A stretch of DNA of 64,000 bases from an uncultured Candidatus Berkelbacteria bacterium (GCA_903877885.1 CAIRFN010000005.1:17956-81955); one strand, 5' to 3'. Counted from the first letter of the stretch, positions 7,806 to 53,687 are shown. Made by a program: numbers and translations. Notes: generated by a model not told the origin, from the sequence alone.

Positions 7806-7855
7806 TTTATCATTATGACTGATCTGGCTATCTAATCTGAAAGAAGGGTACGGAT

Positions 7856-16864: not shown

Positions 16865-16954
16865 TTATTGTTGCAAAGTTGACTTAGTCAATTGTGACCG
16901 TTAGCAATTTTGCTGACATCGACCCCCGCCCGAGGCGGGAGAAGGAACCTTAAA

Positions 16955-24049: not shown

Positions 24050-24068
24050 AAATTCGAATTTTGAATTT
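24050..24068. repeat. Outer 19-bp inverted repeat, left arm (aaattcgaattttgaattt)
   Basis: Its reverse complement is identical to 24481-24499. Lies within gaaattc-type short tandem repeats. Confidence 0.75.
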
Positions 24069-24074
24069 TTTCTT

Positions 24075-24451
24075 TGTCATTCCAGACCGGCCGGAGGCAG
24101 GATCTGGAATCCAGAATAAAATGAATAATTATTATGTGTATATTTTGACTAGCAGAAGAAACGGCACTTTATATATTGGCGTAACTAATGATCTGATTAA
24201 AAGAATATGGGAACATAAAAACCATAGTAAAAAAGGATTTACAGAAAAATATAACATTTGCCAATTGATATACTTTGAGCAAACTAATAATATAAACTCC
24301 GCTATTAATAGAGAAAAACAATTAAAATCATGGAATAGAAAATGGAAACTTGACTTAATTGAGAAAGTCAATCCTGATTGGAAAGATTTATATCAAGAAT
24401 TGTTGTAACTGGATTCCCGATGTCGGATGCCATCCGACTCGAGAATGACAA
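24075..24451 (+). mobile_element. Full-length family-A element carrying a GIY-YIG nuclease ORF between its two terminal modules
   Basis: Left module tgtcattccagaccggccggaggcaggatctggaatccag (24075-24114). ORF 24121-24408. Right module ctggattcccgatgtcggatgccatccgactcgagaatgaca (24410-24451). The short MITE copies (e.g. 38811-38904) are these two modules joined directly. Confidence 0.75.
24121..24408 (+). CDS. GIY-YIG nuclease family protein (UPF0213/YhbQ-like, about 95 aa)
   Basis: ..YYVYILTSRRNGTLYIGVTNDLIKRIWEHKN.. with the GIY...YIG motifs. The start is trimmed to the ATG at 24121. The track frame is open from 24061 through the left terminal module. Confidence 0.85.
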   Translation: MNNYYVYILTSRRNGTLYIGVTNDLIKRIWEHKNHSKKGFTEKYNICQLIYFEQTNNINSAINREKQLKSWNRKWKLDLIEKVNPDWKDLYQELL

Positions 24452-24480
24452 TTGGATAATTAAAAATTGATTCGAAATTC

Positions 24481-25036: not shown

Positions 25037-27475
25037 ATGTTTAATAAATTCAAAAAGAACTTCATCAAGTTTATGATCGGCGTATTATTAGTAGTCTCTT
25101 TTATGCCGAATATTATTGACGCTCAAAAAACCGAATTTGATCGCTGGCAACAAAAAGTAGCTATTCAAAATAATCATTGGCAACAATTAAATGAGCAAGC
25201 TAAAGCAGTTGCTGAAAAATTACAATCAGCTGACAAAAATCCTCTAGGACTAGCCACAGCTAAAGCGGCTGGAAATTATCCAGTTAAAGGTCTTCGAGTA
25301 GCCTTAGACATTTTTGATCGATATACTAATGATGCTACCTATCGACCAAATTACTGGTGGGATTCAGCACCGCTTCCGACTGGTACAAATCTGGCCGATA
25401 TTCAATTTGATATCTCTCTAAGCGCTCCTAATTATAACCTTATTAATAGAACTCTTGTTAGTACTGCCAAAGGTTCTGATTTTCCTAATGACGACAATCT
25501 AAAATGTAATAATGCTGACAAAACCAATTGCGGTACCGTTATGGTCACGGTTAAAACAATGTTGAACCAAAATGGTAATCGAACAGAAATTGGTTCTTCC
25601 TTAGCTTCATTGGTAGTTCCGAATTTAAGCGATCGTGCAAGTAAATTGGCCGCTAGTGCTATTGATAATGATTATAATCCCGCAACATTAAGCACAAGCA
25701 GCACTAGTTCTATTGATAATTCTGACTATCCACCAGCGCCAGACGGTACTACCAGAATGACTGGTGAGCAATGTCAAAACGACCCGGTATGCAGTACTTT
25801 ACCAACATTTGGCGTGCTCGCAGAACCAACTGCTGTATGGGGTGATATAGCTCCAATTGGCATACTGGCATACAATGCTAAAAGTATTGCCAAAATTACT
25901 TTGAGCATTTCTGATCCAGTTTCCAATAAATCATTTTATAAAGACGATTTTACTAACGTTAAAAAACAGGATCAAATATATTATGAATATGATTGGGACA
26001 CTTTACTAGCTCAAACTAATGTCGATAGTGCTAATTCTACCCACACTGCTTTAGCCGAATTTTACAAAGATAATGGTAAAGGCGGTTTTACTTCTATCGG
26101 CCGAGCTACTGCTACGATTAAAATTACTGCTTTCAGTAGTTTCGATCCAATGACTGATGGTTTCTGGGGCGGCTATTTAAGAAATGATGGTAGCTATAGC
26201 CAAGATTGGAAAGTAAAACTTGGTTGTGATAAAAGTGCTGATCTTTGCAAAGATATCGATTCAACTAAAACTGCTATAAGTACAGCAATTGCTAGCGGTC
26301 AAGTTACAGAACAAGATGTTAATGATCTGATAAAAAGTTTCTCTCGTTATAATACCCAATTAAGCAAATCTAGTAGCGGAAACGATGAAACAATGATGCA
26401 GACTGTAGCTAATTGTTATAATATGACTGATTTAATTGGAGTAGTTAATGATCAGATGGATACCAAAGTTGGTATCCCTATTAGCGATATGGACGAAGCT
26501 TTCTTAAAATCACCTGAAAGTATTACTATCTTGCAAGTAGTTAACCAATATAGTTCACGGATTGCTTCTTATAATCCACAAACTCTTGATGAATGGAAAG
26601 CAATGCCTTTTTGGCCACAAATGAGTAATGAGATACTAAATAAGATTAGCCGCGATCCAGCCAATCTTATTAATTCTATTGACGATGTTACACCAGCAAG
26701 TTTAGACACTACGACAACCGCAAGCAACCACAATTCTTTTGCTCTTTTTATGAACCCAACTGGAGTCGCAAAAGCAACTGACCCAATAGGTTTCGTGACC
26801 GATGGCGCCTTCCTTATTGCAGATACAATTAAAATGTTTAGAGATCCAAGTATTGGAAATGCCGCCTGGATATTGGGCGATGTTGCGCTCGGGGCAGTAG
26901 ATGTTGTTCTTGGCGGTGGCGGCGAACTTCATGCCGCTATTGCTAGTGGTAAAGCTGCTATTTGGATGGCTACACATTTTCCGAAAGTAGTTGAAGTATA
27001 TAGAGTAACTAAGGGCGTAATTGCATCGGCTAAAATTGGCGAACGGGTTGGTGCATTTTTAACTAGGATCGGTGGTGGCGCAATTAAGGAAGCAATTATT
27101 AAAGGTGGTACAGCGGTCACTGAATATCTTGCAGCTCATCCAAATCTTGCTAAAATTGTCGATAGAATCAACCCTTTTAAAGCCAAATATTGGGCTTGGG
27201 CGCCAGGAATAGCTAAGAAATTTATCACCAAAGCCAAAGCTGCCGCTTGGTTTGTTTTTGATCATATTATTCCATTCGCCAACCTTGCTGCCCACGTTGC
27301 TGGAGATTCAGGTAAATGTGAATACTGCGCAGATGCAAAAAAGTGGTGGACATGGTTTACTCCAAGCGGAGCTATTCTAAACACCTTATGTGAGCTTCAA
27401 TGTGTAATTATCAACTGGATTGCCAGCGCGGTTGGCTTTGTTGTGGATAAGGTTTTACTACCAAGTATCCTTTAA
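25037..27475 (+). CDS. Large secreted/surface protein (812 aa) with a Gly/Ala-rich hydrophobic C-terminal region
   Basis: N-terminal signal/TM MIGVLLVVSFMPNIIDAQ. Long S/T/N-rich extracellular region. The C-terminal 250 aa are rich in G/A/I and amphipathic. No family recognised. Confidence 0.5.
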   Translation: MFNKFKKNFIKFMIGVLLVVSFMPNIIDAQKTEFDRWQQKVAIQNNHWQQLNEQAKAVAEKLQSADKNPLGLATAKAAGNYPVKGLRVALDIFDRYTNDATYRPNYWWDSAPLPTGTNLADIQFDISLSAPNYNLINRTLVSTAKGSDFPNDDNLKCNNADKTNCGTVMVTVKTMLNQNGNRTEIGSSLASLVVPNLSDRASKLAASAIDNDYNPATLSTSSTSSIDNSDYPPAPDGTTRMTGEQCQNDPVCSTLPTFGVLAEPTAVWGDIAPIGILAYNAKSIAKITLSISDPVSNKSFYKDDFTNVKKQDQIYYEYDWDTLLAQTNVDSANSTHTALAEFYKDNGKGGFTSIGRATATIKITAFSSFDPMTDGFWGGYLRNDGSYSQDWKVKLGCDKSADLCKDIDSTKTAISTAIASGQVTEQDVNDLIKSFSRYNTQLSKSSSGNDETMMQTVANCYNMTDLIGVVNDQMDTKVGIPISDMDEAFLKSPESITILQVVNQYSSRIASYNPQTLDEWKAMPFWPQMSNEILNKISRDPANLINSIDDVTPASLDTTTTASNHNSFALFMNPTGVAKATDPIGFVTDGAFLIADTIKMFRDPSIGNAAWILGDVALGAVDVVLGGGGELHAAIASGKAAIWMATHFPKVVEVYRVTKGVIASAKIGERVGAFLTRIGGGAIKEAIIKGGTAVTEYLAAHPNLAKIVDRINPFKAKYWAWAPGIAKKFITKAKAAAWFVFDHIIPFANLAAHVAGDSGKCEYCADAKKWWTWFTPSGAILNTLCELQCVIINWIASAVGFVVDKVLLPSIL

Positions 27476-27489
27476 ATAAATTTAAATCA

Positions 27490-30063
27490 ATGAAAAAATT
27501 TCTTATTACAAATTCCGGGCTGTTTTTAACGATTTTAATCGGTTTAATTTTATTAGGCTGTTTTGGTATTCACCAGCACCTTAATGCTGATTTTTTAAGT
27601 TTAGCTCCTGGAGTCGCCCATGCCGAACCTTTAGACCAAGAATTGAGAACCGGCGGACCAGCTTGGATCTACACCGTTTGGCGCATTACTTTAAGTTTAG
27701 CCAATGTTTTTGTTGGCGTAATTTTATTATTTTTCGCGTTTGTCAATATTGCCCATATTGATTACGACACGCTCCAGCTTAAAAAAACTTTTCCTGGTTT
27801 GATTACTGGCATTATTATGGCTAACTTCAGTTTGGTTATCTGTCGAATGATGGTCGATATTGCCTCAATCTTAACCTTAACTTTTACTCAAGATTCCACA
27901 GCAATGGTTAATGGTATTCTCTGCTCTTTAACCTTTACTCCTCAAACTACTACTAGTGGGCTGGTCACTTTAGGTATTGCTGTCGGTGCTATTTCCGCCT
28001 TCGGCGGCCCCTTATTATTACTTTTGATTTTAATTTTGGTGGCAGTATTTTTAGGTGTTCTTTTCTTGTCGTTAATGATGCTAATTCGTAAATCAATCAT
28101 CGAAGTTTTAGCCGCCGTTGCTCCTTTAGCCTTCATTATGCTCGCCTTTCCCCCAACCGAAACCTATTTTAAAAAATGGTGGGAATGGTTTTTAAGTTGG
28201 ACTTTTATGGGTCCAATTATGATGGCTTTACTTTGGATTGCTGGTCAAGTCGGCGGCCATTGCGGCGACCCGTTTAGTATGACTCGTACCTTAGCGGTTT
28301 TGGCTTTGGTTTATTTAGCCGCCACTGTTCCATTTAGTATGGGCGGAGTGATTATGGGCGCGATTAAAAAAACTGCTCAAGGTGCCTACAAAGTTGCTTC
28401 TAATAATCCTTGGAGCAAAGCCAGCACGGCAAAAATGAAACAGAAAGCTGGAAACTGGTTTAATAAAACTGGTATTGGTCAATCGTGGCGCAATGCCGAA
28501 GCAACAACCGAAGATTATAACAAACTTTATGATACTCAAGCTAAAGGCGCTCAAGATGAAGCAAGAAGAGGACGAGCACCAAGGGAACAAAGCGAGATCG
28601 ATATGCAAATGAAAGCCGCTCAAGATATCACTGCCGATATCAGTGCAAGAGTTGAAGAAAATTTAAACCGAATGGAAGCTGGTCAACTTCTTGATGGTTT
28701 AACGAATGACGATGTTCAACGCTTTACTGGTCACGCTACCGCACAAGCAGCTGCTAGCCAATTTGTTCGCAATGCCGCTAGAGTTAATCAAGCCAAAAAA
28801 GCAATTGCTAAACGACGTGCTTTAGATATTTTTACTATGGCTCGTCATAATAACGAAGCTAATACTCAAGTAAGAAATGCGATGAGAGCAAGATTGACTG
28901 AAACAGAACTTCCAACAAATGATCCAAATTATCATGCTTTTGTAAATAACCAGGACGGTGTTACAGCCACAGTTTATGATTCAAATAGGCAAGCCAGAGG
29001 TCGGCAAAATTTTACTCATGCTGACTTAGTCGACCAGGCTGCAGATTGGAGACTTAACGGTAAAAAAGCTGCACAAGGGAGTCAACAACAACAAGAATGT
29101 TTTCGAATCGCTCAAGAATATGAGCAACAAGCACAAGCCTTCCAAGATGCCAATCCACAAGTATATGACTATCAAGCAGTACTTGACCGAAATTTATCAG
29201 GTCGTCAATTTGCAGAAATTAATACTGTTCATGTAGATGAAGCTAAAACTGAAGAAATGAATACTACAGGTTTCAATGTCCTTGCAGATACAAGAAAACG
29301 AAATCCTGGCGATTTAAGAAGATTTGGTACCGCAGAAATTCGCGGTACAGACGAAGACTTTGATCGATTTTTAAGAGGAGAGCAACATTTGAATGAAGGT
29401 TTTGGAAATGACGCCTCTCTAATTAAACGAGACGCGACAATGGGTCATGCAAGAAAAGGTGTCAGTAGTGGTGATGTAGCGGGTGTATATGCACTTAATG
29501 ACATTGTAAATCGCATCCAAGAAGCTAGAGAAGTTTGGCGCGGCGATCCTAATCATATACGAACTGTACGTAATGTCCATGGCCAAGATATTCAAATTGA
29601 TGAAGGGGAGTCTAAGGCTAATTTATTTCAAGATAGCCTCGAACGCCTGACTATTCCAGCTCAAAGACAACACATGGAAGAGCAAATCTATAATCAATAC
29701 CGTGAATCATTGCCTCCAGCAGCACAAGCTCATTTGCGAGATCTTACTGGACTAAATCCAACACAAAGACAAACGGAGGTTAATTCACTATTACCCGGTC
29801 AAAGAACAGTCGCATTACGTAATTTTGATCTAACTCGTTTATCTCCTTCTGACCGAGGTGATGGAATTATTCATAAATCATTTTTAAGAAATGTCTATGG
29901 TGGTGTAGAACGTGATGAAAATTTACGTTTTGGTGAAAGTTCTGGCGCAACAGCGGGGAGATCACCGGCCGCCGGTGATGCCCACCCGCTTACTAATCCA
30001 ACACCCAGAAACCAACAAGGTCAGAATCCTGGACAAAATCCAGGCCCAGGAACCGGTCCATAA
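27490..30063 (+). CDS. Polytopic membrane protein (857 aa): about 8 N-terminal TM helices plus a long hydrophilic C-terminal domain with a Gln/Pro-rich tail. Possibly VirB6/TrbL-like
   Basis: The TM cluster spans residues ~1-300. The C-terminus is ..NPTPRNQQGQNPGQNPGPGTGP. The VirB6-like assignment is architectural only. Confidence 0.5.
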   Translation: MKKFLITNSGLFLTILIGLILLGCFGIHQHLNADFLSLAPGVAHAEPLDQELRTGGPAWIYTVWRITLSLANVFVGVILLFFAFVNIAHIDYDTLQLKKTFPGLITGIIMANFSLVICRMMVDIASILTLTFTQDSTAMVNGILCSLTFTPQTTTSGLVTLGIAVGAISAFGGPLLLLLILILVAVFLGVLFLSLMMLIRKSIIEVLAAVAPLAFIMLAFPPTETYFKKWWEWFLSWTFMGPIMMALLWIAGQVGGHCGDPFSMTRTLAVLALVYLAATVPFSMGGVIMGAIKKTAQGAYKVASNNPWSKASTAKMKQKAGNWFNKTGIGQSWRNAEATTEDYNKLYDTQAKGAQDEARRGRAPREQSEIDMQMKAAQDITADISARVEENLNRMEAGQLLDGLTNDDVQRFTGHATAQAAASQFVRNAARVNQAKKAIAKRRALDIFTMARHNNEANTQVRNAMRARLTETELPTNDPNYHAFVNNQDGVTATVYDSNRQARGRQNFTHADLVDQAADWRLNGKKAAQGSQQQQECFRIAQEYEQQAQAFQDANPQVYDYQAVLDRNLSGRQFAEINTVHVDEAKTEEMNTTGFNVLADTRKRNPGDLRRFGTAEIRGTDEDFDRFLRGEQHLNEGFGNDASLIKRDATMGHARKGVSSGDVAGVYALNDIVNRIQEAREVWRGDPNHIRTVRNVHGQDIQIDEGESKANLFQDSLERLTIPAQRQHMEEQIYNQYRESLPPAAQAHLRDLTGLNPTQRQTEVNSLLPGQRTVALRNFDLTRLSPSDRGDGIIHKSFLRNVYGGVERDENLRFGESSGATAGRSPAAGDAHPLTNPTPRNQQGQNPGQNPGPGTGP

Positions 30064-31046: not shown

Positions 31047-31086
31047 AATCAACTGGATTTGACAGATTATTCCCCCTTGACAACAG

Positions 31087-31115
31087 GGGAGTTTTGTGGT
31101 ATATTTATATGTTCT
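31087..31115 (+). promoter_or_regulatory. Near-consensus promoter TTGACA, 17-bp spacer, extended TGgTATATT
   Basis: ccttgacaacaggggagttttgtggtatatt. It sits within a weak cccc/gggg hairpin and drives the GC-rich gene at 31279. A second TTGACA lies at 31069. Confidence 0.5.
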
Positions 31116-31278
31116 GAAATTGATGAGGTGAAAGATTATTTTACCCCTCAAGTCAGTTGCATAGATTGACAATTGAATACAAATATTACTCTGACCCAGT
31201 GGGCAAATTAGCCCCTGGCAAGGCACCAGTTTAACCTGATGCTGCGTCCGGGCTGATGAGGCCCAAGGAGAAAGAAAA

Positions 31279-32241
31279 ATGCAGAAATTCCTCTTGATTG
31301 CCATGATGGCAATCACTCTGTTATCCCTCACCAACAGCGCCTTCGGTCAGAAGGTGGTTGGAACACTGGTCGTCAAAGCGACAACCAGTACGACAACAAG
31401 CGGTGTTCCTGTGCCTGACGGTGCAGTTGAACAGCCGCCAACGCCGAAAGCGCAAACAACCCCTGCGCCAGTAGTGTCCGACCGTGTCAATATCAATGAC
31501 CTTCGGGTCAAAAAATTGACAATCGACAACGTGAAAGTACATGTCGATCGTCGGTCAGGTAATGTCGTAGCGGACGGGGCAAGACCAGCAAGTCATCATG
31601 TTGCCCGTCGCCCGACCATCGGAACCAGTCCGGTCGTAGTCAAAAAAATCTCCGGATTAGAGACGACTGTCTACGGCGGCAGGAAGTCGACTGGTTTGGT
31701 CGGGAAAGTCGCAAAAATCGACACTCGGCTAACCGACGCCGAGACTAACATCTCGACATTAAATGAAAACTGCACCACAGCCCAAACAACTGCAGATGGA
31801 GCTAAAACAGCTGCAGAGGAAGCCAAAGCGATGGCAACTGGAGCTAACGAGAAAATAAATAGTTTAGCTGCCGGAATCGGGCTGACTAAGTGGGTTGCCT
31901 GGATCGCTTTGATCTTGGCGATTTGCTTGGCCTGCTTGGCTGGCTATAACTACTTCCGAAAGGAAAGAACTGGTGTGAGTAAGGACGAGCTTGACACTTT
32001 AGGGCGTCAGGTTGTTATTAACAATATCAACCTCAAGGATCAGCTTGAAGGAATCAACCGAGAGATCGCCGATCTTAAGCGAAGTATCAACACTTCGTCG
32101 GAACCCGACGCCGAACCGGAGGCAACCCCTAGGCCGCCGTTCGACTTCTCGCGTTTTCACATGCCAAAACCCGAGCCTGAACCGCTCGCCGCGACTAAGG
32201 AAGATCTTCAGGGCGCAGTCGACGACGCGGTCATAGCATAA
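31279..32241 (+). CDS. Secreted protein with signal peptide, coiled-coil region and a single C-terminal TM anchor. GC-rich island gene
   Basis: MQKFLLIAMMAITLLSLTNSAFGQ signal. TM at LTKWVAWIALILAICLACLAGY. GC clearly above the flanks. AAGGAG RBS 8 nt before the ATG. Confidence 0.5.
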   Translation: MQKFLLIAMMAITLLSLTNSAFGQKVVGTLVVKATTSTTTSGVPVPDGAVEQPPTPKAQTTPAPVVSDRVNINDLRVKKLTIDNVKVHVDRRSGNVVADGARPASHHVARRPTIGTSPVVVKKISGLETTVYGGRKSTGLVGKVAKIDTRLTDAETNISTLNENCTTAQTTADGAKTAAEEAKAMATGANEKINSLAAGIGLTKWVAWIALILAICLACLAGYNYFRKERTGVSKDELDTLGRQVVINNINLKDQLEGINREIADLKRSINTSSEPDAEPEATPRPPFDFSRFHMPKPEPEPLAATKEDLQGAVDDAVIA

Positions 32242-32296: not shown

Positions 32297-32311
32297 AAAT
32301 ACTTAAAAATA

Positions 32312-32348
32312 GATTCCGGATCCTGTCGCCAACCGGTCCGGAATGACA
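32312..32348. repeat. Family-A solo half-module
   Basis: gattccggatcctgtcgccaaccggtccggaatgaca. Confidence 0.65.
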
Positions 32349-32355
32349 TTTGACG

Positions 32356-33969
32356 TCACATCAAATTCCAATTCATCTTAATATCAACCTTGCCTTTATT
32401 AGGCGGTAATTTGATTCTATTTGGCACGAATAAGCCCTCGCTTAAACCAGCTATTTCGCAGAAATTTTCCATAGCCGTCTTAGGAACAAATTTTCCTTCA
32501 TACCAACCACCGGCTGCATCAATTTCTTTTTGCATAAGGTCCGAAGCAATCTTTTCATACTGATTTTGTAAACTTATTCGTTTAATGAAATTCCAGGCGC
32601 CTTTGGCTGCTTTAATTTCTTGGCGTAAATGATCTAATGACATTGAGCCGGAAATAGTTTCCATAGATCGTTCAGCTCTTTCGGTTGGCTCTAGTATTGA
32701 AGCCGACCCGGCACCAACTCCACCACTGCCGCTGGCTTCTATAATCGGCGCCGAAGGCGGTAAAACCGGTTCTGGCGCACTTTCGGCTGGTTCTGACGGT
32801 ATTGCGGGTGATTCAAATACCGAAGGCGCAGCTGGCGTCGCCGGTAATTCTGGACTTGACACTGGCACTGGAGCGACTGCCGGTTGAGGTAAATCGTTTA
32901 ATTTCCACGGCGAATTTTCGCCTTCTGCTGGCTTACGCGGTTTGGAACCAAAAATCTTCGCGCCTAAAATACCGAAAGCCGACGCTATTTGAGCCCAATC
33001 CTTAAATTCCAAACCACGACCTAAAACATGACCAATCTCGTCAACAAAAGGTTCGATCGTTAATTTTGCCCCCATTTGAATGGCTTCAGCAGATGCCCTC
33101 GCATACTCGGACATATTATTATATATGAAATGACCGCCATGCATATTCCAGACAACCCTGTGACCAGCATCAAGTGCCACTTGGCCAACCTTTGTCGCCT
33201 CCGCCGCTTTATGAAAACCAAGGGGAATACCATTGAGTAAACCTGTTGCCAAAGTCGCGACCGATGATACAATCCCTCGACCTAATTTCCAGTTCTGTTC
33301 GCTTTTCATATTTTTCTGCTGCGCTTCAATGACAGCATTTTCTTTTTCTTTAATGCCAATTATCAGATCTGCAAAATTATCATCGGTCATTTCTGCACCA
33401 TGTTCGCGTAGAGCTAACTTTGCTACTTCAATTGCTTCTGTTAATTCATTTTGAGCCGCCAGTTCTAAATTAGTACGCTTATTACCCCAACCAACTTCTT
33501 CAACAACTTGAATTAAGCCGTCAATACCAACCTGTAATCCCTTGCTCCAAAGCGGAGCGGTAAAAACACCAGCACCACTCATTACCATCACTGTCGCTGT
33601 ACCAAGACCGCCAGAAACTTTAGATAAAATTCCCATCCACTTGCGATATCGCGGCGTTTTTTCCCATTCGCCAAGAGTATCTAGCTCAATACTTCCATCT
33701 TCTTTTTCTGTGTAAAATCTTTCACCGACACGATTAAAAAATTGATTGATTTCGCCAAGTGTTTTACTTCCAAACGCCCCTTTGTATCTTTCAGCGGCTC
33801 TGGCGTCATCACGATCAACTAATTCTTTAATTTCATCAATCAACCATTGTTCATAGTTTAATGGCTCTTCTTCAGGTTCAACTGGCGTTTCATGAAGCGT
33901 GATTTCAGGACCTAATTCTGGCCTGACAGTGGCTTCGGCAGAATGATCAATCGGAGTTGTTTCTTGCAT
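32356..33969 (-). CDS. Hypothetical protein (537 aa) with a Pro/Ala/Ser-rich linker
   Basis: Intact ORF with the low-complexity stretch ..PAVAPVPVSSPELPATPAAPSVFESPAIPSEPAESAPEPVLPPSAP.. No family recognised. Confidence 0.5.
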   Translation of the reverse strand: MQETTPIDHSAEATVRPELGPEITLHETPVEPEEEPLNYEQWLIDEIKELVDRDDARAAERYKGAFGSKTLGEINQFFNRVGERFYTEKEDGSIELDTLGEWEKTPRYRKWMGILSKVSGGLGTATVMVMSGAGVFTAPLWSKGLQVGIDGLIQVVEEVGWGNKRTNLELAAQNELTEAIEVAKLALREHGAEMTDDNFADLIIGIKEKENAVIEAQQKNMKSEQNWKLGRGIVSSVATLATGLLNGIPLGFHKAAEATKVGQVALDAGHRVVWNMHGGHFIYNNMSEYARASAEAIQMGAKLTIEPFVDEIGHVLGRGLEFKDWAQIASAFGILGAKIFGSKPRKPAEGENSPWKLNDLPQPAVAPVPVSSPELPATPAAPSVFESPAIPSEPAESAPEPVLPPSAPIIEASGSGGVGAGSASILEPTERAERSMETISGSMSLDHLRQEIKAAKGAWNFIKRISLQNQYEKIASDLMQKEIDAAGGWYEGKFVPKTAMENFCEIAGLSEGLFVPNRIKLPPNKGKVDIKMNWNLM

Positions 33970-33972
33970 AAT

Positions 33973-34311
33973 TTACTCCTTTTGACTTTTTACTTTTTTG
34001 GCCAAGTCGATCAGTTTGATTTTTTCCAACAAGGTTTCTTCAACCACTAACTGACCAAGATTGATGTTTTTGCTTTCCAAAAACTTTAGAGTTTCCTCGT
34101 CTTGATCTTTAGCCATCAAATCAGTAAAAATCGATTTGTCTGCTTCAGCCAATAAATCGTCGATTCTAACCGCCACCCGACTTTGAATCCCCCGATTTAA
34201 CTGGTTTATGAGTTCCGCTTTTTTATCATCTGACAGATGGTCAAGTCCCATGAGTTCAAAGATATCGCCTTCGATTAAATCTTCCGGCGTAACATTAACT
34301 AAGTTAGACAT
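33973..34311 (-). CDS. Hypothetical protein (112 aa)
   Basis: Intact ORF. RBS ggaggcaaatg. Directly upstream of, and co-oriented with, the 537-aa gene. Confidence 0.4.
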   Translation of the reverse strand: MSNLVNVTPEDLIEGDIFELMGLDHLSDDKKAELINQLNRGIQSRVAVRIDDLLAEADKSIFTDLMAKDQDEETLKFLESKNINLGQLVVEETLLEKIKLIDLAKKVKSQKE

Positions 34312-34350
34312 TTGCCTCCTTACTTTACCTTTCTAGCATAGATTAACCTC

Positions 34351-34379
34351 TTGACAAATGTCAAATTATATGGTATATT
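34351..34379 (+). promoter_or_regulatory. Near-consensus promoter whose -35 lies in the palindrome TTGACAAATGTCAA. 17-bp spacer, extended TGgTATATT
   Basis: cctcttgacaaatgtcaaattatatggtatatt. It shares the CTCTTGACAAAT(A)GTCAA motif with the promoter at 36780. Confidence 0.55.
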
Positions 34380-34448
34380 ACGATGTTATTGCTAGAAGAA
34401 TATTTTAGCAATTTAGTATATTAAAAATCAAGCTTAAGGAGAGGAAAA

Positions 34449-34949
34449 ATGCCAGAAAAGACTACCGGTGAGCCGGTGAAGTTCATCCCTTTGTCCATGG
34501 TTGGTTCTCTCGTCAATATGGTTGTTGAGAAAATCAAGGCATGGCTGGTCACCACCTATTTAAAATCGATCATTGATCGATTGGAAAAAGTCGAAGCGGA
34601 TTTAAACCCGCCCGACGAGTTCTTCACACAGCAATTCGATGTGATTAACGAAGGGATAAAAAAAATCATCGATGAGCGCTTGGCGAAGGTTCGTCAGGAG
34701 GTCTACGACCAACTGAAGCAAGAGCTTAGTTCGTCGCTGACGATTCTCTCCTCCGAGGAAGAAGCCAAGACGATCGAGCAGGCTCGCGCCGAGCGCGATG
34801 CTCGAAACAAAGAGTTGCGCGACATTGCTCCACCAACGCCGCCTGCGCCAACTCCAACGACTACCGTCAAACGCACAGAGCGCGTCGTCAAACCCGACAC
34901 CGCTACCCCCACCGTCAAGAAGCCGCGGCTCGCGCCACCGAGCATCTAA
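34449..34949 (+). CDS. Hypothetical coiled-coil protein with a Pro/Thr-rich C-terminus. GC-rich island
   Basis: 166 aa. AAGGAG RBS. Elevated GC. Confidence 0.45.
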   Translation: MPEKTTGEPVKFIPLSMVGSLVNMVVEKIKAWLVTTYLKSIIDRLEKVEADLNPPDEFFTQQFDVINEGIKKIIDERLAKVRQEVYDQLKQELSSSLTILSSEEEAKTIEQARAERDARNKELRDIAPPTPPAPTPTTTVKRTERVVKPDTATPTVKKPRLAPPSI

Positions 34950-34966
34950 AATCAAGGAGAAGGAAC

Positions 34967-36037
34967 ATGGGAATCGAAACCAAAGAACCCCGCCAAATCG
35001 GGGCGCTGAACATTATGCTATCAGGACTTGTCCTGGATGAGCAGAACCCTCCGAAGGATGGATGGGTCTACTACAAAATGATGGAAAATGAAACCCTGGT
35101 ATTAAATTTTGTCGACAGTCGCGAAAAAGTCCTCGAAGCGGCCGAAGCCGTATTTAACACCTCGGCAGAAATTTCCGTGGCCAAACGCGCGCACAAGGAA
35201 TTCAAAGCGCTTTTGGTTGGGTACAAAGAGGCTGTCACCGCCTTTGAAAAAGCGGTTCATAGCCCAGGCGTAGTACAAACGCAAGAGGTTATCGGTCTCG
35301 GCGGTCGTAATCGTTGGCAACGGATAATTATCTACGACCTCGAAGATGAAGAGATCGAGGGTGATATGGTCGCCTGTCGAATCTACGGTGATGCCCGGAG
35401 TTGGTTTTTTAACCCGTTCTGGTGTGTGAACCTGGATAACGGCGGCGTCTACCCGGTTTTGGCACCGATCGGTAAACAAGCGGTCATCGTCGACCGTAAC
35501 GGTAGCACCATCCGGTTCTGCTGTTACTCTCACGAAGACGGTTGGGTTGTCGAGACATTCGACAAGCGTAAGCCTGTCAAAGCGCCACCGACACTACCGA
35601 AAACGACCGAGAAACTGGCACCGCCCCCACCGCCTGACGACAAACCGGAAGCAACAGTGATATCGGAAGTCCCCATCATCTGCCCGGAATGTGAAGCCGA
35701 AATCGGCGTACCGTTCCTCGACTATCAGGAGGCAGGCACGATTAGCTGTCCGAACTGTAAAACCAGTATCGGACCATTAATCAATGGCTCCACCCTCCTG
35801 ACCGCCGACGCCGTCGGTGTCAAGGTGGGACTGAATGAACAAATGATAGTGACGCTCGGCGAACAAAACCAGCCGATCTACACCATCGCCGGATTGGCCG
35901 GTATGGGCGACAGCGATCTTCGCAAGATGCTAAAGCTCAAACGAACATCGGAAGCGGCCACGATTATCTTGGCTGCCCAGGCATTTATGCCTGACGACAA
36001 TCCCGAGGAAGATGCGGATCAGGAGGATCCGCAATAA
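34967..36037 (+). CDS. Hypothetical protein with a C-terminal zinc ribbon (CPECEAEIG...CPNCKTSIG). GC-rich island
   Basis: 356 aa. AAGGAG RBS. Elevated GC. Tandem terminators downstream. Confidence 0.5.
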   Translation: MGIETKEPRQIGALNIMLSGLVLDEQNPPKDGWVYYKMMENETLVLNFVDSREKVLEAAEAVFNTSAEISVAKRAHKEFKALLVGYKEAVTAFEKAVHSPGVVQTQEVIGLGGRNRWQRIIIYDLEDEEIEGDMVACRIYGDARSWFFNPFWCVNLDNGGVYPVLAPIGKQAVIVDRNGSTIRFCCYSHEDGWVVETFDKRKPVKAPPTLPKTTEKLAPPPPPDDKPEATVISEVPIICPECEAEIGVPFLDYQEAGTISCPNCKTSIGPLINGSTLLTADAVGVKVGLNEQMIVTLGEQNQPIYTIAGLAGMGDSDLRKMLKLKRTSEAATIILAAQAFMPDDNPEEDADQEDPQ

Positions 36038-36055
36038 CATCAAAAGGAGGAATTA

Positions 36056-36121
36056 GGCCGGCTCGAAAGAGCCGGCCTTTTCCATACTTAAAAGCCCGGC
36101 GCGTAAGCGCCGGGCTTTTTC
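36056..36121 (+). terminator. Tandem rho-independent terminators
   Basis: ggccggctc-gaaa-gagccggcc tttt, then agcccggcgc-gtaa-gcgccgggct ttttt. Confidence 0.75.
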
Positions 36122-36139
36122 GTGGCATCAAAATGCCAA

Positions 36140-36703
36140 CTAAAAATCGATAAAAAGATAGGAAGGACCGCGGGAAAAATTCCAATCCACCATTCGGCCG
36201 CCGTTTAAGGCCGGACCAAGAATCAATTGAACGAAATCGCCGCGATCGTAATGGTTGAGAAAAAACCCTCGAACCGAGAGATTTTGTTGCCGTAAGCAAC
36301 CGAGGAACTCGATATTCCTTTCAATCGAGAGCTCGCCAGACATATCGGCATTCGGCGTCAGCCACTTGAGTTGCAATTTGGTCTTCGGAACTTTGGACTC
36401 AACCGAGTCCGCCTCTTCCTGAACCTTAACCAATTCTACTAGCCAAGCATCTTGCAGCTGGCTAATAAGATGAGCAATAATCCTTCCGGGAATAATCATA
36501 TTCCGGAAGGCTTCAACAGGTTCGCCGGCGCCTTTAATCGACCTACCATGAAACTCGTGCTCATATTCGCCACCCAAAGCAGCAGAAAGAGCATTTTGCG
36601 TTTCACGGTCAGCTTCGCGCCGCGGCCAACTGATAATATCATGGCCGAGAATGTTTTCCAGCCGGATTATAGAAATCCGATCCACTGGCAAAATCATCGC
36701 CAT
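36140..36703 (-). CDS. Hypothetical protein (187 aa), GC-elevated
   Basis: Intact ORF. No family recognised. Confidence 0.45.
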   Translation of the reverse strand: MAMILPVDRISIIRLENILGHDIISWPRREADRETQNALSAALGGEYEHEFHGRSIKGAGEPVEAFRNMIIPGRIIAHLISQLQDAWLVELVKVQEEADSVESKVPKTKLQLKWLTPNADMSGELSIERNIEFLGCLRQQNLSVRGFFLNHYDRGDFVQLILGPALNGGRMVDWNFSRGPSYLFIDF

Positions 36704-36763
36704 TTCCTCCTTTTTTTATTCAATTTTCAAAGAACATTGTATTATACCTTAAAATTGTCTGAA

Positions 36764-36833
36764 TGTCAAGAGAAAGCTCTTGACAAATAGTCAACAATGT
36801 AGTATAGTTGGTTGTTATCTTCCGGAAGATAAC
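36764..36833 (+). promoter_or_regulatory. Promoter plus operator complex: a TGTCAAGA-n6-TCTTGACA palindrome overlapping the -35, TTGACA, 17-bp spacer, TATAGT, then a perfect 20-bp palindrome gttatcttccggaagataac
   Basis: tgtcaagagaaagctcttgacaaatagtcaacaatgtagtatagt... The palindrome at 36814-36833 sits at about +5 to +25. Confidence 0.55.
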
Positions 36834-36938
36834 ATTGGCAAAGAGAAAAGGAGTTTCGTAGCTAAGAAGTTCGTAAGCTACGTAGCGCATTACAGATAGT
36901 TTCTGCCTAATCAAGCCTATACACAAGGAGACGAGTCA

Positions 36939-37664
36939 ATGCAACTCGCAGATTTCGTCAAAGACACAAATCCGGAGACCTATGCTGCCTTAACAAATGA
37001 GACAACGCAGGCCGAGGGAGCGACGCAAGTGCCGAGAAGTACACAACGGCCGATGCCAATCGCTGCAAATGTCCTGGACACCAGCAACTTCATCTTTAAC
37101 ACCAAAGTGATGACCCTGATGTTCCCGTTACCGCAGTCAGCGGCAACAATCACTGTCCCGATTCGTGATCGCGGTCAAAAGGCCGGCTTCAAACTGAAGC
37201 CGATTCACGACTTAAAATTCACAATCGTCGGGTACCCGACCGGTCGGATCCTTAGCACTATTGCCAAGAAAATGTCCGACCATCAGTTTGATTCCTTTGT
37301 CTGGCAAATCGAACAGCTCATTCGCCAAACAAACTGGAATTGGCAAGTCGCCGCCGATAAGGCTGGCAATGCCCAGTATTGGGAACTTTCCCGCGCTTAC
37401 CTGGAAGAGGTCAACTCACCGGATGGTAAAGGCAAGTATACCAGAGAAAACCGCCGCGGTTCAATCATCGCCTTGATCGATCTGCCGGGGTTGGAAGGTT
37501 TCTACTGCGAGCTGGAAAAGCTCGTCAGTAAGGCCGCTAACAAATCGACCACCCTGCCACGACCTGCCACCTACATCACCCTGATGGTGAAAGGTGCTAA
37601 TCAGGACGGCATTGGCATAAGCTCTCCCGACGAATTGGAAACGTACAAAGTCAAACGATGGTAA
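36939..37664 (+). CDS. Hypothetical protein (241 aa), GC-elevated
   Basis: AAGGAG RBS. Strong terminator at 37717-37741. Confidence 0.5.
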   Translation: MQLADFVKDTNPETYAALTNETTQAEGATQVPRSTQRPMPIAANVLDTSNFIFNTKVMTLMFPLPQSAATITVPIRDRGQKAGFKLKPIHDLKFTIVGYPTGRILSTIAKKMSDHQFDSFVWQIEQLIRQTNWNWQVAADKAGNAQYWELSRAYLEEVNSPDGKGKYTRENRRGSIIALIDLPGLEGFYCELEKLVSKAANKSTTLPRPATYITLMVKGANQDGIGISSPDELETYKVKRW

Positions 37665-37716
37665 TATTTTCTCTGGGAGGAGAGCAGTCGAAACAGGAGG
37701 TCTAGACTTAAATCAC

Positions 37717-37741
37717 AGCGCTCATGATGAGCGCTTTTTAA
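37717..37741 (+). terminator. Rho-independent terminator
   Basis: agcgctca-tga-tgagcgct followed by ttttt. Confidence 0.75.
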
Positions 37742-37752
37742 ATACAGACCAA

Positions 37753-37788
37753 AAGGACAGTCCTTCAGCGCGTTAAAGGACTGTCCTT
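37753..37788. repeat. REP-like palindromic element, copy 3
   Basis: aaggacagtcctt-cagcgcgtta-aaggactgtcctt tt. It is followed by a ttgataccagatacc motif. Confidence 0.8.
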
Positions 37789-37839
37789 TTGGATAATCTG
37801 ACACTTGATACCAGATACCAAATGCTATATACTTGACCC

Positions 37840-38793: not shown

Positions 38794-38810
38794 AATTTAT
38801 AACTGTAGAC

Positions 38811-38904
38811 TGTCATTCCAGACCGGACGGCGTCAGGATCTGGAATCTAGGATAATTGTTTCTGGATTCCCGATGTCGGATTGCCATCCGACTCGGGAAT
38901 GACA
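38811..38904. repeat. Family-A MITE-like element, intergenic reference copy
   Basis: tgtcattccagaccggacggcgtcaggatctggaatctag gataattgttt ctggattcccgatgtcggattgccatccgactcgggaatgaca. The whole element is a long imperfect palindrome. Confidence 0.85.
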
Positions 38905-38921
38905 AAGAAAAATATAACAAA

Positions 38922-40070: not shown

Positions 40071-40183
40071 TTTGTCAAGGATGCCCTTCAGTAACAGATT
40101 CTGATGTAAAGAATTTATTCATAGGACTATCTCCTTTCTAGAGCATAAAGCTTCCTCATATTTTTTATATTTATCTAATTTTT

Positions 40184-40277
40184 TGTCATTCCAGACCGGA
40201 TGGCATCAGGATCTGGAATCCAGAGTTAATTATTTCTGGATTCTTGATGTCGGAGTACCCTCCGGCTCGAGAATGAC
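40184..40277. repeat. Family-A MITE-like element in the metK 5' leader, between the riboswitch terminator and the start codon
   Basis: tgtcattccagaccggatggcatcaggatctggaatccag...ctggattcttgatgtcggagtaccctccggctcgagaatgaca. Confidence 0.8.
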
Positions 40278-40292
40278 ATAAAAAAACAAAAA

Positions 40293-40412
40293 TCACCGCA
40301 AGCGGTGAAATATATAAAAACATCTTTCCCGCAAGGGGTCGGAGGTAGCACCTAAATTAATGGGTTGCTGGTGGATCATCGGGCCGAATCCCTCACCACA
40401 CTCTTGATATTA
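40293..40412 (-). ncRNA. SAM-I (S-box) riboswitch with an intrinsic terminator, upstream of metK
   Basis: Minus-strand read: AUCAAGAGUGUGGUGAGGGAUUCGGCCCGAUGAUCCACCAGCAACC...GGUGCUACCUCCGAC. This matches the conserved SAM-I core AGAGnGGnGGAGGGAnnGGCCCGAUGAnnCCnnGCAACC...GGUGCUA. It is followed by a terminator tcaccgcttgcggtga plus a T-run at 40280-40308. Confidence 0.8.
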
Positions 40413-40528
40413 AAATTAATTTTTAACTAAATTTATCATATTATAACCATCTAACTTTTGTCAAACTCTTGCCTGGAAACAATTTTTGCTTTAAGATGTA
40501 AATATTAAATTTATATTTTAGGAGCAAA

Positions 40529-45136: not shown

Positions 45137-45527
45137 TGTCATCCTCGAGCCGGTTTGAGCTTTGTCGAAAACCGACATCAAGGATCCATCAAAATAAAAA
45201 GCTATTTCGTTTACATTTTAGCCAGTCAGAAAAACGGAACATTATATATCGGTGTTACAAATGATATTATAAGAAGGATTTGGGAGCACAAAAATAAAGC
45301 TATTCAAGGTTTTACAGATAAATATAGAATTGATAAATTAGTTTATTTCGAAGAAACACCAGATATTAATTCAGCTATTAAGAGAGAAAAACAATTAAAA
45401 TTATGGAGCCGTTCCTGGAAAATAGATTTGATAGAAAAGAATAATCCTGATTGGAAAGATTTATATCAAGATTTGTTATAATGGATCCTTGATGTTGGAG
45501 CGCTTCGCTTCCAACTCGAGGATGACA
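45137..45527 (+). mobile_element. Second full-length family-A element carrying a GIY-YIG ORF between its terminal modules, inserted between atpA and atpG
   Basis: Left module tgtcatcctcgagccggtttgagctttgtcgaaaaccgacatcaaggatcca. ORF to 45481. Right module tggatccttgatgttggagcgcttcgcttccaactcgaggatgaca. Confidence 0.75.
45155..45481 (+). CDS. GIY-YIG nuclease family protein (second copy)
   Basis: ..YFVYILASQKNGTLYIGVTNDIIRRIWEHKN..REKQLKLWSRSWK.. The frame is open from a TTG inside the left terminal module. There is no ATG near the conserved N-terminus, so the start is uncertain. Confidence 0.75.
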   Translation: MSFVENRHQGSIKIKSYFVYILASQKNGTLYIGVTNDIIRRIWEHKNKAIQGFTDKYRIDKLVYFEETPDINSAIKREKQLKLWSRSWKIDLIEKNNPDWKDLYQDLL

Positions 45528-46025: not shown

Positions 46026-47066
46026 ATGCCAAGTACACAAGAATTTCGTAGAAGAATTAAATCGGTCAGTTCGACCAAACAGATTACCAAAGCAATGGAA
46101 ATGATTGCTTCTATTAAGATGCAAAAATCTGTCAAAACTATTGCCCAGGCTCGAGCCTATATCCAAAACGCATGGAATATTTTACATTTACTGTCTGAAA
46201 AAATATTAAGCGACGATCACGCGCTGATTAATCCTAAAGATCATGCCAAAAAAACAGCCGTGATTTTAATTACTTCTGACCGCGGTTTATGCGGTTCATA
46301 TAATTCAGAAGTGATCAAGAAGCTAACATCATTCAAAAATGTCATCCTCGAGACGGAGGGTACTCCGACATCAAGGATCCAGGACCTGGATTCCAGATCT
46401 GGTTCCCAACCAGTCTGGAATGACAATACGATTGATATCATTGCCATCGGTAAAGTCGGCGCCGCGTTTGTTAACAGATATAAAATCGGCAAACTGATCG
46501 CTGAATTTAAAGGTTTTGAAAATAATATTTCCGTTGAAGATGTCATTCCGATTTCCAAACTGACGAATGGTGAATATATGGCTGGAAATTATGACAAAGT
46601 GGTAGTGATTTATTCTCATTTCATTTCTTCGCTTAAACAAGTCCCGGTCGTCAAACAAATTTTGCCAATTGTCGAAGATCATATCGATCATCCGGAATTA
46701 TGGGAAGGAAATAATGTCATCCTCGAGCCGGAGGGTACTCCGACATCAAGGATCCAGGACCTGGATTCCCGATCCGGAGGCCATCCGGTCGAGAATGACA
46801 AAAACAATACTGAATACAAATTTGAACCCAATCCTGATGAAGTTTTTGATGGCGTCTTGCGACAAATTTTACGCACCCAAATTTTCGGTGCCATTTTAGA
46901 AGCCAACGCTTCTGAACATTCGGCCCGTATGGTGGCCATGAAAAATGCCACCGACAATGCCACCGATTTAGTTGATGAATTAAAATTAGTATATAACAGC
47001 ATCCGCCAAGGAAACATCACTTCGGAAATCGCCGAAATTAGTGGTGCCGCCGAGGCGATGAAATAA
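46026..47066 (+). CDS. atpG: F0F1 ATP synthase subunit gamma (lengthened by two in-frame MITE insertions)
   Basis: Conserved N-terminus (..RRRIKSVSSTKQITKAMEMIASIKMQK..) and C-terminus (..NSIRQGNITSEIAEISGAAEAM). At 346 aa it is longer than typical. Confidence 0.9.
   Translation: MPSTQEFRRRIKSVSSTKQITKAMEMIASIKMQKSVKTIAQARAYIQNAWNILHLLSEKILSDDHALINPKDHAKKTAVILITSDRGLCGSYNSEVIKKLTSFKNVILETEGTPTSRIQDLDSRSGSQPVWNDNTIDIIAIGKVGAAFVNRYKIGKLIAEFKGFENNISVEDVIPISKLTNGEYMAGNYDKVVVIYSHFISSLKQVPVVKQILPIVEDHIDHPELWEGNNVILEPEGTPTSRIQDLDSRSGGHPVENDKNNTEYKFEPNPDEVFDGVLRQILRTQIFGAILEANASEHSARMVAMKNATDNATDLVDELKLVYNSIRQGNITSEIAEISGAAEAMK
46340..46425. repeat. Family-A MITE-like element in frame in atpG (copy 1)
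   Basis: tgtcatcctcgagacggagggtactccgacatcaaggatccag gac ctggattccagatctggttcccaaccagtctggaatgaca. Translated as ..VILETEGTPTSRIQDLDSRSGSQPVWND.. Confidence 0.8.
46715..46800. repeat. Family-A MITE-like element in frame in atpG (copy 2)
   Basis: tgtcatcctcgagccggagggtactccgacatcaaggatccag gac ctggattcccgatccggaggccatccggtcgagaatgaca. Translated as ..VILEPEGTPTSRIQDLDSRSGGHPVEND.. Confidence 0.8.
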
Positions 47067-50646: not shown

Positions 50647-51150
50647 GTGCAATTTCAAGTACCGCAAAATATAGATCTCGAAGACAAGATTGTCGGGCCA
50701 TTGACCTTGACGCAGTTTTTGTATGTCTTAGGCGGCGGCCTTGTTGATTACATTATGTTTCAATCTTTTGCCGCTAATTATTTTGGGCTTTTTCTGGTTC
50801 TTGGTATCCCAGTCGCTTTACTTGCTTTAGGATTAGCTTTTTTTAAAGTCCAAGAACAGCCTTTGTCACATTTTATCACAGTTGGAATTTTATATTTATT
50901 TAAACCAAAAACTAGACTATGGAAAAGAGAAGAAAGCTATCCAACAGTTCTAACTGAACCAACAAAAAAAGAAAAAAAGGAAAATGAAAATGTGGCAATT
51001 CCAAAACATCATCTTGAAAAAAGTGAGCTGGAACAATTAGCCTACAAATTAGATACTTTTCAAGTAGATACGCCGGTTGAAGAAAAGAAAAAATTTGGCG
51101 CAGTTTCCGCCGCTTTCGAACAATTATTGAAGGAAGATAAAAAGAAGTAA
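50647..51150 (+). CDS. Small 2-TM protein, VirB3-like / PrgI-like component of Gram-positive-type T4SS (tentative)
   Basis: 167 aa. GTG start after GGAGGGG. Hydrophobic hairpin LYVLGGGLVDYIMF...LVLGIPVALLALGLAFF followed by a charged tail. First gene of the operon that contains VirB4. Confidence 0.45.
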   Translation: MQFQVPQNIDLEDKIVGPLTLTQFLYVLGGGLVDYIMFQSFAANYFGLFLVLGIPVALLALGLAFFKVQEQPLSHFITVGILYLFKPKTRLWKREESYPTVLTEPTKKEKKENENVAIPKHHLEKSELEQLAYKLDTFQVDTPVEEKKKFGAVSAAFEQLLKEDKKK

Positions 51151-51163
51151 CCAGGAGGGGATC

Positions 51164-53685: not shown

Positions 53686-53687
53686 TT

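Follow-up and report, generated by a model that had tools for sequence, protein, structure and literature searches.

The region described here lies at positions 34351–37741 of a 64,000-nt stretch of bacterial chromosome (hereafter the window; GCA_903877885.1 CAIRFN010000005.1:17956-81955) from an uncultured Candidatus Berkelbacteria bacterium, with an overall GC content of 40.1%. It holds four genes, namely gene 1 (166 amino acids (aa); 34449–34949, plus strand), gene 2 (356 aa; 34967–36037, plus strand), gene 3 (187 aa, or 185 aa in another gene call; 36140–36703, minus strand) and gene 4 (241 aa; 36939–37664, plus strand). An earlier note on this DNA had interpreted them as a GC-rich, horizontally acquired and repressor-controlled module; the four reading frames that it predicted are all present, and each start codon is preceded, at a distance of 5–8 nt, by the AAGGAG(G) Shine-Dalgarno sequence that it had also reported. 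Genes 1 and 2 form an operon with a gap of 17 nt, gene 3 converges on them across two strong GC-rich hairpins, and gene 4 is divergent from gene 3. To the left, a DUF5663-family gene (33973–34311, minus strand; PF18908 is listed for the product, the match being weak at E 0.008; homologues occur in the related loci L086 and L089) heads a leftward operon with 32356–33969 and diverges from gene 1.

In the wider window, the order is a TPR gene, genes for two large membrane proteins (one TrbL/VirB6-like), several small genes, a 537-aa gene on the minus strand, the DUF5663 gene, genes 1 to 4, a NIF3-like gene and, on the minus strand, metK. The NIF3-like gene immediately to the right of the region finds its best matches in metagenome-assembled genomes of Patescibacteria, at no more than 69% identity, which places the host in the candidate phyla radiation without a close species representative in the genome collection. 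Several metagenome assemblies contain identical copies of the region, and strain variation in the sampled populations amounted to one single-nucleotide polymorphism (SNP) in 2 kb, too little for a dN/dS estimate.

The two intergenic regions between divergent genes, of 137 bp (DUF5663 gene and gene 1) and 235 bp (genes 3 and 4), each require one promoter per direction, and four predicted sigma-70-type sites meet this need. P1(+) (34351–34379) combines TTGACA with a 17-nt spacer, TATATT and a TG extension (11 of 12 consensus positions). Opposite to it, P1(-) (34335–34364, minus strand) has TTGACA at 34364–34359, an 18-nt spacer and TATGCT at 34340–34335 (10/12); no other promoter-like site that could serve the DUF5663 operon lies in its intergenic region. 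Gene 3 is served by P2(-) (36741–36769, minus strand; TTGACA, 17-nt spacer, TATAAT; 12/12) and gene 4 by P2(+) (36780–36808; TTGACA, 17-nt spacer, TATAGT; 11/12). Behind all four hexamer pairs, spaced by 17–18 nt, follows a gene with a Shine-Dalgarno sequence. Transcripts are predicted to begin near 34386 (plus strand), 34328 (minus strand), 36734 (minus strand) and 36814–36817 (plus strand).

This arrangement accounts for the symmetry that had been taken for a palindromic operator. The sequence TTGACAAATGTCAA at 34351–34364—the sole TTGACA-N1-8-TGTCAA in the window—consists of the -35 hexamers of P1(+) and P1(-) overlapping face to face, the 'TGTCAA' of the earlier note being the -35 box of P1(-). 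At the second locus, TGTCAAGAGAAAGCTCTTGACA comprises the -35 boxes of P2(-) and P2(+) back to back, 10 bp apart. The proposal that TTGACA faces TGTCAA at both plus-strand promoters holds for the first; the second carries AGTCAA instead. With each half of the motif being a -35 box that is followed at the proper distance by a -10 box and then by a gene, the operator interpretation is not supported, and on sequence grounds the TTGACA/TGTCAA symmetry is best read as the -35 boxes of divergent sigma-70 promoters, two opposed promoters per intergenic region being enough to create it.

Orthologous loci (designated by L numbers here) point the same way. In L086, the identical 14-mer TTGACAAATGTCAA, followed by tatGGTAATATT, lies between a divergent DUF5663 gene and a gene 1-like gene, and L084 carries TTGACATGTCAA at the orthologous site with a divergent open reading frame (ORF) on the other side. 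Among 90 fetched loci, TTGACA-N0-4-TGTCAA occurred at the orthologous site of L084 and L086 only; L005, L087 and L089, whose upstream gene is co-oriented, carry TTGACA promoters that lack TGTCAA. That the orthologous loci show the symmetry only beside a divergent upstream gene supports the divergent-promoter reading, and the predicted sigma-70 arrangement is conserved for P1 in L086 and L084. At 34335–34379, one RNA polymerase bound to the overlapping face-to-face -35 hexamers would be expected to exclude the other.

Pairs of sigma-70 promoters that diverge or overlap are known, as in Escherichia coli bioA/bioBFCD. The present case resembles that pair and the bidirectional promoters described more recently (Warman et al., bioRxiv 10.1101/2020.01.31.928960; PMC12825309) in that promoters on opposite strands share a short symmetric stretch, so that a polymerase bound in one direction should prevent binding in the opposite one. 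The published bidirectional promoters have their symmetry in the -10 elements (Warman et al., bioRxiv 10.1101/2020.01.31.928960; PMC12825309), whereas the present pairs involve the -35 hexamers, which overlap in P1 and abut in P2; this sets the predicted transcript starts about 60–80 bp apart.

The shared motifs are commoner than expected by chance: the 64 kb contain exactly two copies of CTCTTGACAAAT, at 34348 and 36777, as against 0.03 expected, and three of CTCTTGACA, as against 0.19 expected, the latter all at promoters of the region. A general promoter consensus that we saw at a dozen sites—yTTGACAaa, an extended -10 element tatGGTAtAaT, then TGTT—accounts for the greater part of the shared 12-mer as well as for the TGTT that follows the -10 box. 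Still, the three promoters share more than chance would give them. They might be co-regulated through the CTCTTGACA extension, by an alternative sigma factor or an activator contacting DNA just upstream of the -35 box, or they might be duplicates of one promoter. Besides the confinement of CTCTTGACA to these promoters, this idea draws on the cCTCTTGACA found in L084 and on the finding that the three are mutually closest outside the hexamers, agreeing at 21–24 of 42 positions as compared to 15.5±4.1. However, L086 has TCCTTGACA, an unrelated pair of promoters is equally alike (23/42), a C ahead of TTGACA is common genome-wide, and the test was made post hoc on a small sample; we consider co-regulation or duplication unlikely.

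Immediately downstream of P2(+), the earlier note had reported a perfect 20-bp palindrome. It is present, but extends over 22 bp (TGTTATCTTCCGGAAGATAACA, 36813–36834), beginning 5 nt past the -10 box at the predicted transcript start of gene 4. Palindromes of at least 22 bp arose in two of 200 composition-preserving block shuffles. As RNA, the same sequence would form a 9-bp stem with a 4-nt loop (-7.1 kcal/mol, z -3.25). The other rightward leader is similar in this respect: a 10-bp stem-loop (34388–34412; -9.2 kcal/mol, z -3.5, none of 200 shuffles as good) stands near the predicted 5' end of the gene 1–2 transcript. The two stem-loops are unrelated in sequence and both significant against shuffles, the 5' ends of the transcripts being predicted from the -10 boxes. 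A second hairpin (36853–36886; -9.7 kcal/mol, z -2.0) follows in the ~125-nt leader of gene 4, which as a whole folds no better than shuffles (z -1.28). Among the relatives, a 7-bp hairpin is found at the corresponding place of the L087 leader, and the leader hairpins of L087 and L086 are weaker. Rfam returned no family above threshold for the leaders, the sub-threshold matches falling on terminator hairpins only. A second perfect 22-bp palindrome of the window, ACCCGTTTCTTAAGAAACGGGT, is found at 188–209, upstream of gene 278–871.

Two functions can be considered for 36813–36834. Lying where transcription of gene 4 is predicted to begin, it may act as a 5'-terminal stem-loop that shields the mRNA from 5'-end-dependent decay. 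Stem-loops at the 5' end are established mRNA stabilisers (PMC3997798), examples being E. coli ompA/papA and the Bacillus subtilis aprE leader (cited in PMC3997798). As in these systems, a hairpin begins within a few nucleotides of the predicted 5' end and precedes a strong Shine-Dalgarno sequence, and RNase J is encoded in the window (937–2706). Unlike them, the stem is short and no more than moderately stable, the DNA is a perfect palindrome including the loop, and the element is a prediction from sequence.

Alternatively, the palindrome could be the operator of a dimeric regulator, either the divergently encoded gene 3 product or an unlinked factor, that blocks initiation at gene 4, the rest of our interpretation being kept. 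Classical repressor sites such as lac O1 occupy a position similar to its approximate span of +1 to +21, the dyad is perfect over 22 bp, centre included, a divergent layout like that of genes 3 and 4 is typical of regulator–target pairs, and an RNA of -7.1 kcal/mol is of no more than moderate stability. Against this, no second copy or half-site cluster was found within the window, and family scans detected no helix-turn-helix (HTH) or other DNA-binding regulator among the four proteins or their neighbours, and no such domain was detected in genes 1, 3 or 4. The hairpin of unrelated sequence at the same place in the other rightward leader is likewise easier to reconcile with a role of the RNA than with a shared operator. 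By its palindromic centre and its position near +11 the site fits an operator as well as it fits a hairpin; given the unrelated hairpin in the other leader, the presence of RNase J, the single copy and the lack of a detected regulator nearby, a 5' stabilising hairpin is slightly favoured, an operator being somewhat less likely.

GC-rich hairpin terminators had been noted as well, and we found them in two places. Between genes 2 and 3 stand hairpins at 36055–36078 (-22.4 kcal/mol) and 36090–36119 (-26.4 kcal/mol), both with z of about -6; A and T runs flank the latter on both sides, so it can serve as a bidirectional terminator. Gene 4 ends at an intrinsic terminator (37717–37735, plus strand; -12.1 kcal/mol). 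Taken together with the consensus promoters, the Shine-Dalgarno sequences and the 5' hairpins, these predicted very strong terminators make the genes look tuned for high mRNA levels.

The genes are indeed GC-rich relative to their background. GC contents of genes 1 to 4 are 0.527, 0.528, 0.480 and 0.514, as compared to 0.389±0.055 for the 51 other ORFs of the window, and GC contents at third codon positions (GC3) are 0.63, 0.59, 0.50 and 0.61, as compared to 0.353±0.086 (Mann-Whitney p=1.3e-5). The Karlin codon bias of the four genes (0.42–0.66 vs 0.29±0.08) agrees with this, and the codon shift goes toward C- and G-ending codons alike in nearly all families (for instance, AAG 0.42 vs 0.15 and CTG 0.27 vs 0.07).

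While the GC excess assigned to an island at 34351–37741 is real, its confinement to these limits is not, for three genes outside are likewise GC-rich: a 117-aa gene at 7856–8209 (GC3 0.53; within 7778–8209), a lipoprotein gene at 16955–17446 (GC3 0.71; within 16836–17446) and a signal-peptide protein gene at 31279–32241 (GC3 0.54; within 31077–32241), each with a near-consensus promoter of TTGACA and a 17-nt spacer. The last of these, on the plus strand with its consensus promoter at 31077, belongs to the same conserved cluster as genes 1 to 4; its product has a Thr/Pro-rich region and a C-terminal transmembrane segment besides the signal peptide, and its positional counterparts in L086, L087 and L089 are likewise GC-rich. 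A perfect TTGACA with a 17-nt spacer precedes all six GC3-rich transcription units, as compared to about 4 of 28 other units with an intergenic region (Fisher p ~1.6e-4, the counts being approximate). The three outside genes belong to the same class as those of the region, and the "island" is one local cluster of a class that extends genome-wide. The DUF5663 gene has background composition even though it is placed between two GC-rich genes.

The same contrast recurs in other species. Genes of the gene 2 type and their upstream partners exceed their neighbours in GC in four loci, with GC3 values of 0.72/0.73 vs 0.37 for DUF5663 in L086, 0.51 vs 0.25–0.32 in L087, 0.63–0.64 vs 0.31–0.54 in L005 and 0.41–0.50 vs 0.24–0.29 in L089. 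Since the GC3-richness is conserved in positional orthologues, it speaks for long-term selection or biased conversion rather than recent import, and it would be a trait of a genome-wide, lineage-specific class of genes with near-consensus promoters. GC-biased gene conversion, which has been described in bacteria (PMC4450053), acting at a recombination hot spot, or repeated exchange within the clade, could have produced the excess in place of expression-linked selection. The rise of C- and G-ending codons in nearly all families looks compositional rather than translational, and the extremely fast divergence of the genes would fit as well. However, there is almost no polymorphism in the sampled populations (the single SNP in 2 kb), no direct evidence of recombination was obtained, and such a process would give no reason to expect the association with consensus promoters, so we regard conversion or exchange as rather unlikely.

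To place the genes among known sequences, a word-indexed protein search was run with genes 2, 3 and 4 against 5.8 billion protein clusters. It returned these genes themselves and one relative of gene 3, P0013, which is 49% identical, is the only homologue found for gene 3 and occupies the same convergent position in L084, where a gene 1-like and a gene 2-like gene converge on it as in the window. An exhaustive HMMER search with gene 2 gave about eight relatives of 30–37% identity among 1.84 billion representatives. Genes 1 and 4 and the two genes to the left of the DUF5663 gene have no detectable homologue even at syntenic positions.

On the contig that carries P0015 (22.9 kb; JGI metagenome 3300059473), from another species, the order is TrbL_3, 263 aa, 295 aa, 674 aa (minus strand), 124 aa (minus strand), two small genes, a 358-aa homologue of gene 2, 201 aa (minus strand), 220 aa at the position of gene 4, one extra gene, NIF3, metK (minus strand) and ATP synthase, which is the order of the window. 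L086 reads 320 aa, 687 aa (minus strand), DUF5663 (minus strand), 110 aa, gene 2 homologue and NIF3, and L087/L088 reads TPR, TrbL_3, 498 aa, gene 2 homologue and NIF3; in L005 and L085 the gene 2 homologue also adjoins NIF3. In total, a gene of the gene 2 family adjoins the same NIF3 gene in five other Patescibacteria, several of them with DUF5663 or TrbL-like neighbours, and every homologue with readable surroundings sits in a Patescibacteria-type gene context. Across the syntenic loci, identities are 52–66% for NIF3 and 74–75% for MetK, as against 26–36% for the gene 2 family. In L004, the closest relative by NIF3, the locus is rearranged and genes of the gene 1–2 type are absent. The region would be the distal part of a chromosomal cluster native to one clade of Patescibacteria, vertically inherited and subject to very fast sequence evolution.

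Foreign candidates were tried in turn. A phage remnant, one of the origins proposed earlier, was rejected: family scans of the window proteins found neither integrase nor phage families, PHROGs gave no match with E below ~0.01 to the four proteins, and a scan of viral contigs with the gene 2 family alignment, a tblastn search of gene 4 against phage records and a fold search of gene 2 against BFVD (E<=1e-3) were all empty. Cargo of a plasmid or integrative and conjugative element was rejected as well; gene 2 has no match among plasmid records, and conserved housekeeping genes separate the region from the type-IV-secretion-like genes of the window. A defence system was dismissed after PADLOC returned no match for ten proteins. 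A high-GC donor, whose homologues the earlier note had expected a search to reveal, did not appear among the relatives of genes 2, 3 and 4 listed above, and scanning JGI metagenomes with the alignment of gene 2 and with that of gene 3 gave no matches. No tRNA was found, and flanking repeats were at chance level only.

A recent foreign cassette—whether a phage remnant, host-derived or from another high-GC donor—kept silent or controlled by a repressor bound to the TTGACA/TGTCAA and 20-bp palindromes would account for the strong anomaly in composition and codon usage, for motifs far above chance and for the restriction of genes 3 and 4 to the closest relatives. Like a genomic island or prophage remnant, the region is a block of atypical GC and codon usage whose proteins have no known function. 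Unlike such elements, it has no mobility genes, tRNA or att repeats, its promoters are of the host type and fit the host's own extended consensus, and the low-GC native DUF5663 gene is interleaved among the GC-rich genes both in the window and in L086. Moreover, synteny and GC excess are conserved over six loci whose NIF3 proteins are 52–66% identical, no donor homologues turned up among 5.8e9 and 1.84e9 proteins, and phage, plasmid and defence matches were lacking. A composition pattern conserved at a conserved locus in such divergent genomes cannot be explained by recent import of a cassette; we consider a repressor-controlled cassette of this kind very improbable. Conserved synteny, relative GC-richness and the lack of a foreign homologue together make recent horizontal transfer of the region unlikely.

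Known families reveal little about the four proteins, for which Pfam, NCBIfam, PHROGs and PADLOC gave nothing above their cut-offs. The Zn-ribbon protein announced by the earlier note is the 356-aa product of gene 2, and its coiled-coil and PT-rich descriptions both apply to the 166-aa product of gene 1, which has a hydrophobic N-terminus, a coiled coil and a Pro/Thr-rich tail. Gene 2 encodes an N-terminal domain (aa 1–200), a Pro-rich linker, a Zn ribbon (aa 238–264; nt 35678–35758), a helix-hairpin-helix (HhH)2/SAM-like segment (aa ~280–338) and an acidic tail. In Pfam, zf-HypF reached 18.8 bits, under the 23-bit cut-off, and no HHH family was matched. In an AlphaFold model from an eight-sequence alignment (mean predicted local distance difference test score (pLDDT) 75), the N-domain is rich in beta structure and includes a long helical hairpin; the Pro-rich linker is disordered, and a Cys4 ribbon and a C-terminal domain of five helices follow it. 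Foldseek searches with the full model against PDB and BFVD gave no match at E<=1e-3, and none was found for the N-terminal domain; the modelled C-terminal region does show fold similarity to a (HhH)2/Zn-ribbon nucleic-acid-binding module. For gene 3, the AlphaFold2 model (two-sequence alignment, pLDDT 36) was not used, and PDB sequence searches with genes 3 and 4 were empty.

The closest known combinations of Zn finger and helix-hairpin-helix to the tail of gene 2 are domain 3 of LigA (the NAD+-dependent DNA ligase), the acidic repeats of NusA and the (HhH)2 domains of RAD51/XPF. Unlike these, gene 2 has no family match at the sequence level, no catalytic domain, an N-terminal stretch of 200 residues without structural match, and DNA binding that is putative. 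Its modelled Zn ribbon and (HhH)2-like tail suggest non-sequence-specific nucleic-acid binding or protein docking. P0019 (410 aa, encoded outside the window) is a distant relative sharing just the Zn ribbon and C-terminal domain, which it joins to a DnaJ J-domain (Pfam E 2.7e-9); this combination implies that the tail of gene 2 is a mobile module. The proteins form a narrow, uncharacterised family; the expression signals of the region are of known kinds.

Putting these lines together, we think it reasonably probable that the region represents a clade-specific chromosomal cluster, native, quickly evolving and probably expressed at a high level, whose conspicuous features are expression signals and not parts of a foreign repressor–operator module. 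What the earlier note observed is confirmed, and its interpretation as horizontally acquired and repressor-controlled largely not supported. Several points weigh against our reading. Promoters and transcript starts are predicted from consensus only, and the AGTCAA at the second promoter has no promoter role. CTCTTGACA is found only at the three promoters of the region and again in L084, and since its CTC is not explained by the general consensus, some module-specific recognition is possible. The 22-bp dyad, perfect and centred near +11, also looks like the site of a dimeric repressor, and a hairpin in the RNA would not require its self-complementary CCGG centre. Within the window, typical high-expression genes—rpsT and those of the ATP synthase—are not GC3-rich, which leaves an expression-based cause of the GC excess unproven. 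Finally, only the closest relatives have genes 3 and 4, and syntenic loci at a greater distance lack them, so the two must have been added at some point within the clade.

Regarding the surroundings, type-IV-secretion-like genes flank the region on both sides (25037–30063 and 50647–54941). On the left, gene 27490–30063 has 31% identity to proteins annotated TrbL_3; downstream are genes for PrgI (50647–51150), a VirB4/TraG-like ATPase (51862–53685) and NlpC/P60 (53688–54941). NIF3, metK and the ATP synthase operon stand between the region and these downstream genes, an order conserved in another species. The window also carries genes for TsaD, a class-I aminoacyl-tRNA synthetase, MetK, RNase J and PNPase and an F-type ATP synthase operon. 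A more far-reaching reading, which we offer as speculation and think quite unlikely, is that the clade has, across deep divergence, maintained both GC3-richness and near-consensus promoters in a class of lineage-specific genes that evolve very fast; that the gene 1–2 pair, with the structurally unmatched N-domain and LigA-like Zn-ribbon/(HhH)2 tail of gene 2, beside a TrbL/VirB6-like cluster and not far from PrgI, VirB4-like and NlpC/P60 genes, would be a DNA-handling or docking accessory of a type-IV-secretion-like apparatus; and that the overlapping face-to-face promoters would make expression of the two flanking operons mutually exclusive.

Two families of dispersed repeats are present in the window. 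One is a hairpin, AAAGGACAGTCCTT-N9-AAGGACTGTCCTTT, with six intergenic, terminator-like copies at 11372, 15691, 37752, 39754, 61460 and 61823; the third of these marks the right border of the region as a palindromic, terminator-like repeat at 37749–37792, inside which two Logan contigs (L001 and L002) end, at 37777. The other is a separate GC-rich palindromic family (TGTCATTCC...GGATCTGGAATCCAG / ...GGAATGACA) with at least 15 copies, among them 13618–13658, 20879–20943, 21279–21329, 23626–23666, 46335–46426 and 46710–46801, and further 15736–15826, 24070–24120, 24428–24472, 32309–32349, 38806–38917, 40179–40291, 45550 and 49554. Several copies lie inside essential genes with the reading frame intact: atpG, which exceeds a relative in length by about 50 aa, encodes NVILExEGTPTSRIQDLDSRSG twice (aa 104–134 and 229–259), tsaD is longer by about 75 aa, and holA and the tRNA synthetase gene also contain copies. 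In this, the family resembles the Rickettsia-type palindromic elements inserted in coding genes. Two small GIY-YIG genes (24061–24408 and 45155–45481), 72% identical at the DNA level, adjoin copies of the family and may be its mobile source.

Two further features were recorded in the window. A SAM (S-adenosylmethionine) riboswitch (40317–40413, minus strand; 57.6 bits) lies upstream of metK, with a promoter at 40464 (TTGACA, 18-nt spacer, TATGAT). A gene for a bAvd-like/23S-rRNA-intervening-sequence protein (17534–17911, minus strand) is convergent with the GC-rich lipoprotein gene; no reverse transcriptase was seen among the scanned ORFs of the window.

For genome scanning, these results mean that a GC-rich block with striking palindromes in an AT-rich, reduced genome need not be foreign or operator-controlled, as divergent consensus promoters alone generate the TTGACA/TGTCAA symmetry. 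For the biology of Patescibacteria, they provide a testable set: a very small protein family whose fold has been modelled (about eight relatives among 1.84 billion representatives), a face-to-face promoter pair that is conserved, and a GC3-rich class of genes with near-consensus promoters. The lasting GC3-richness of positional orthologues across species could inform how base composition is shaped in this lineage, be it by expression, mRNA stability or biased conversion.

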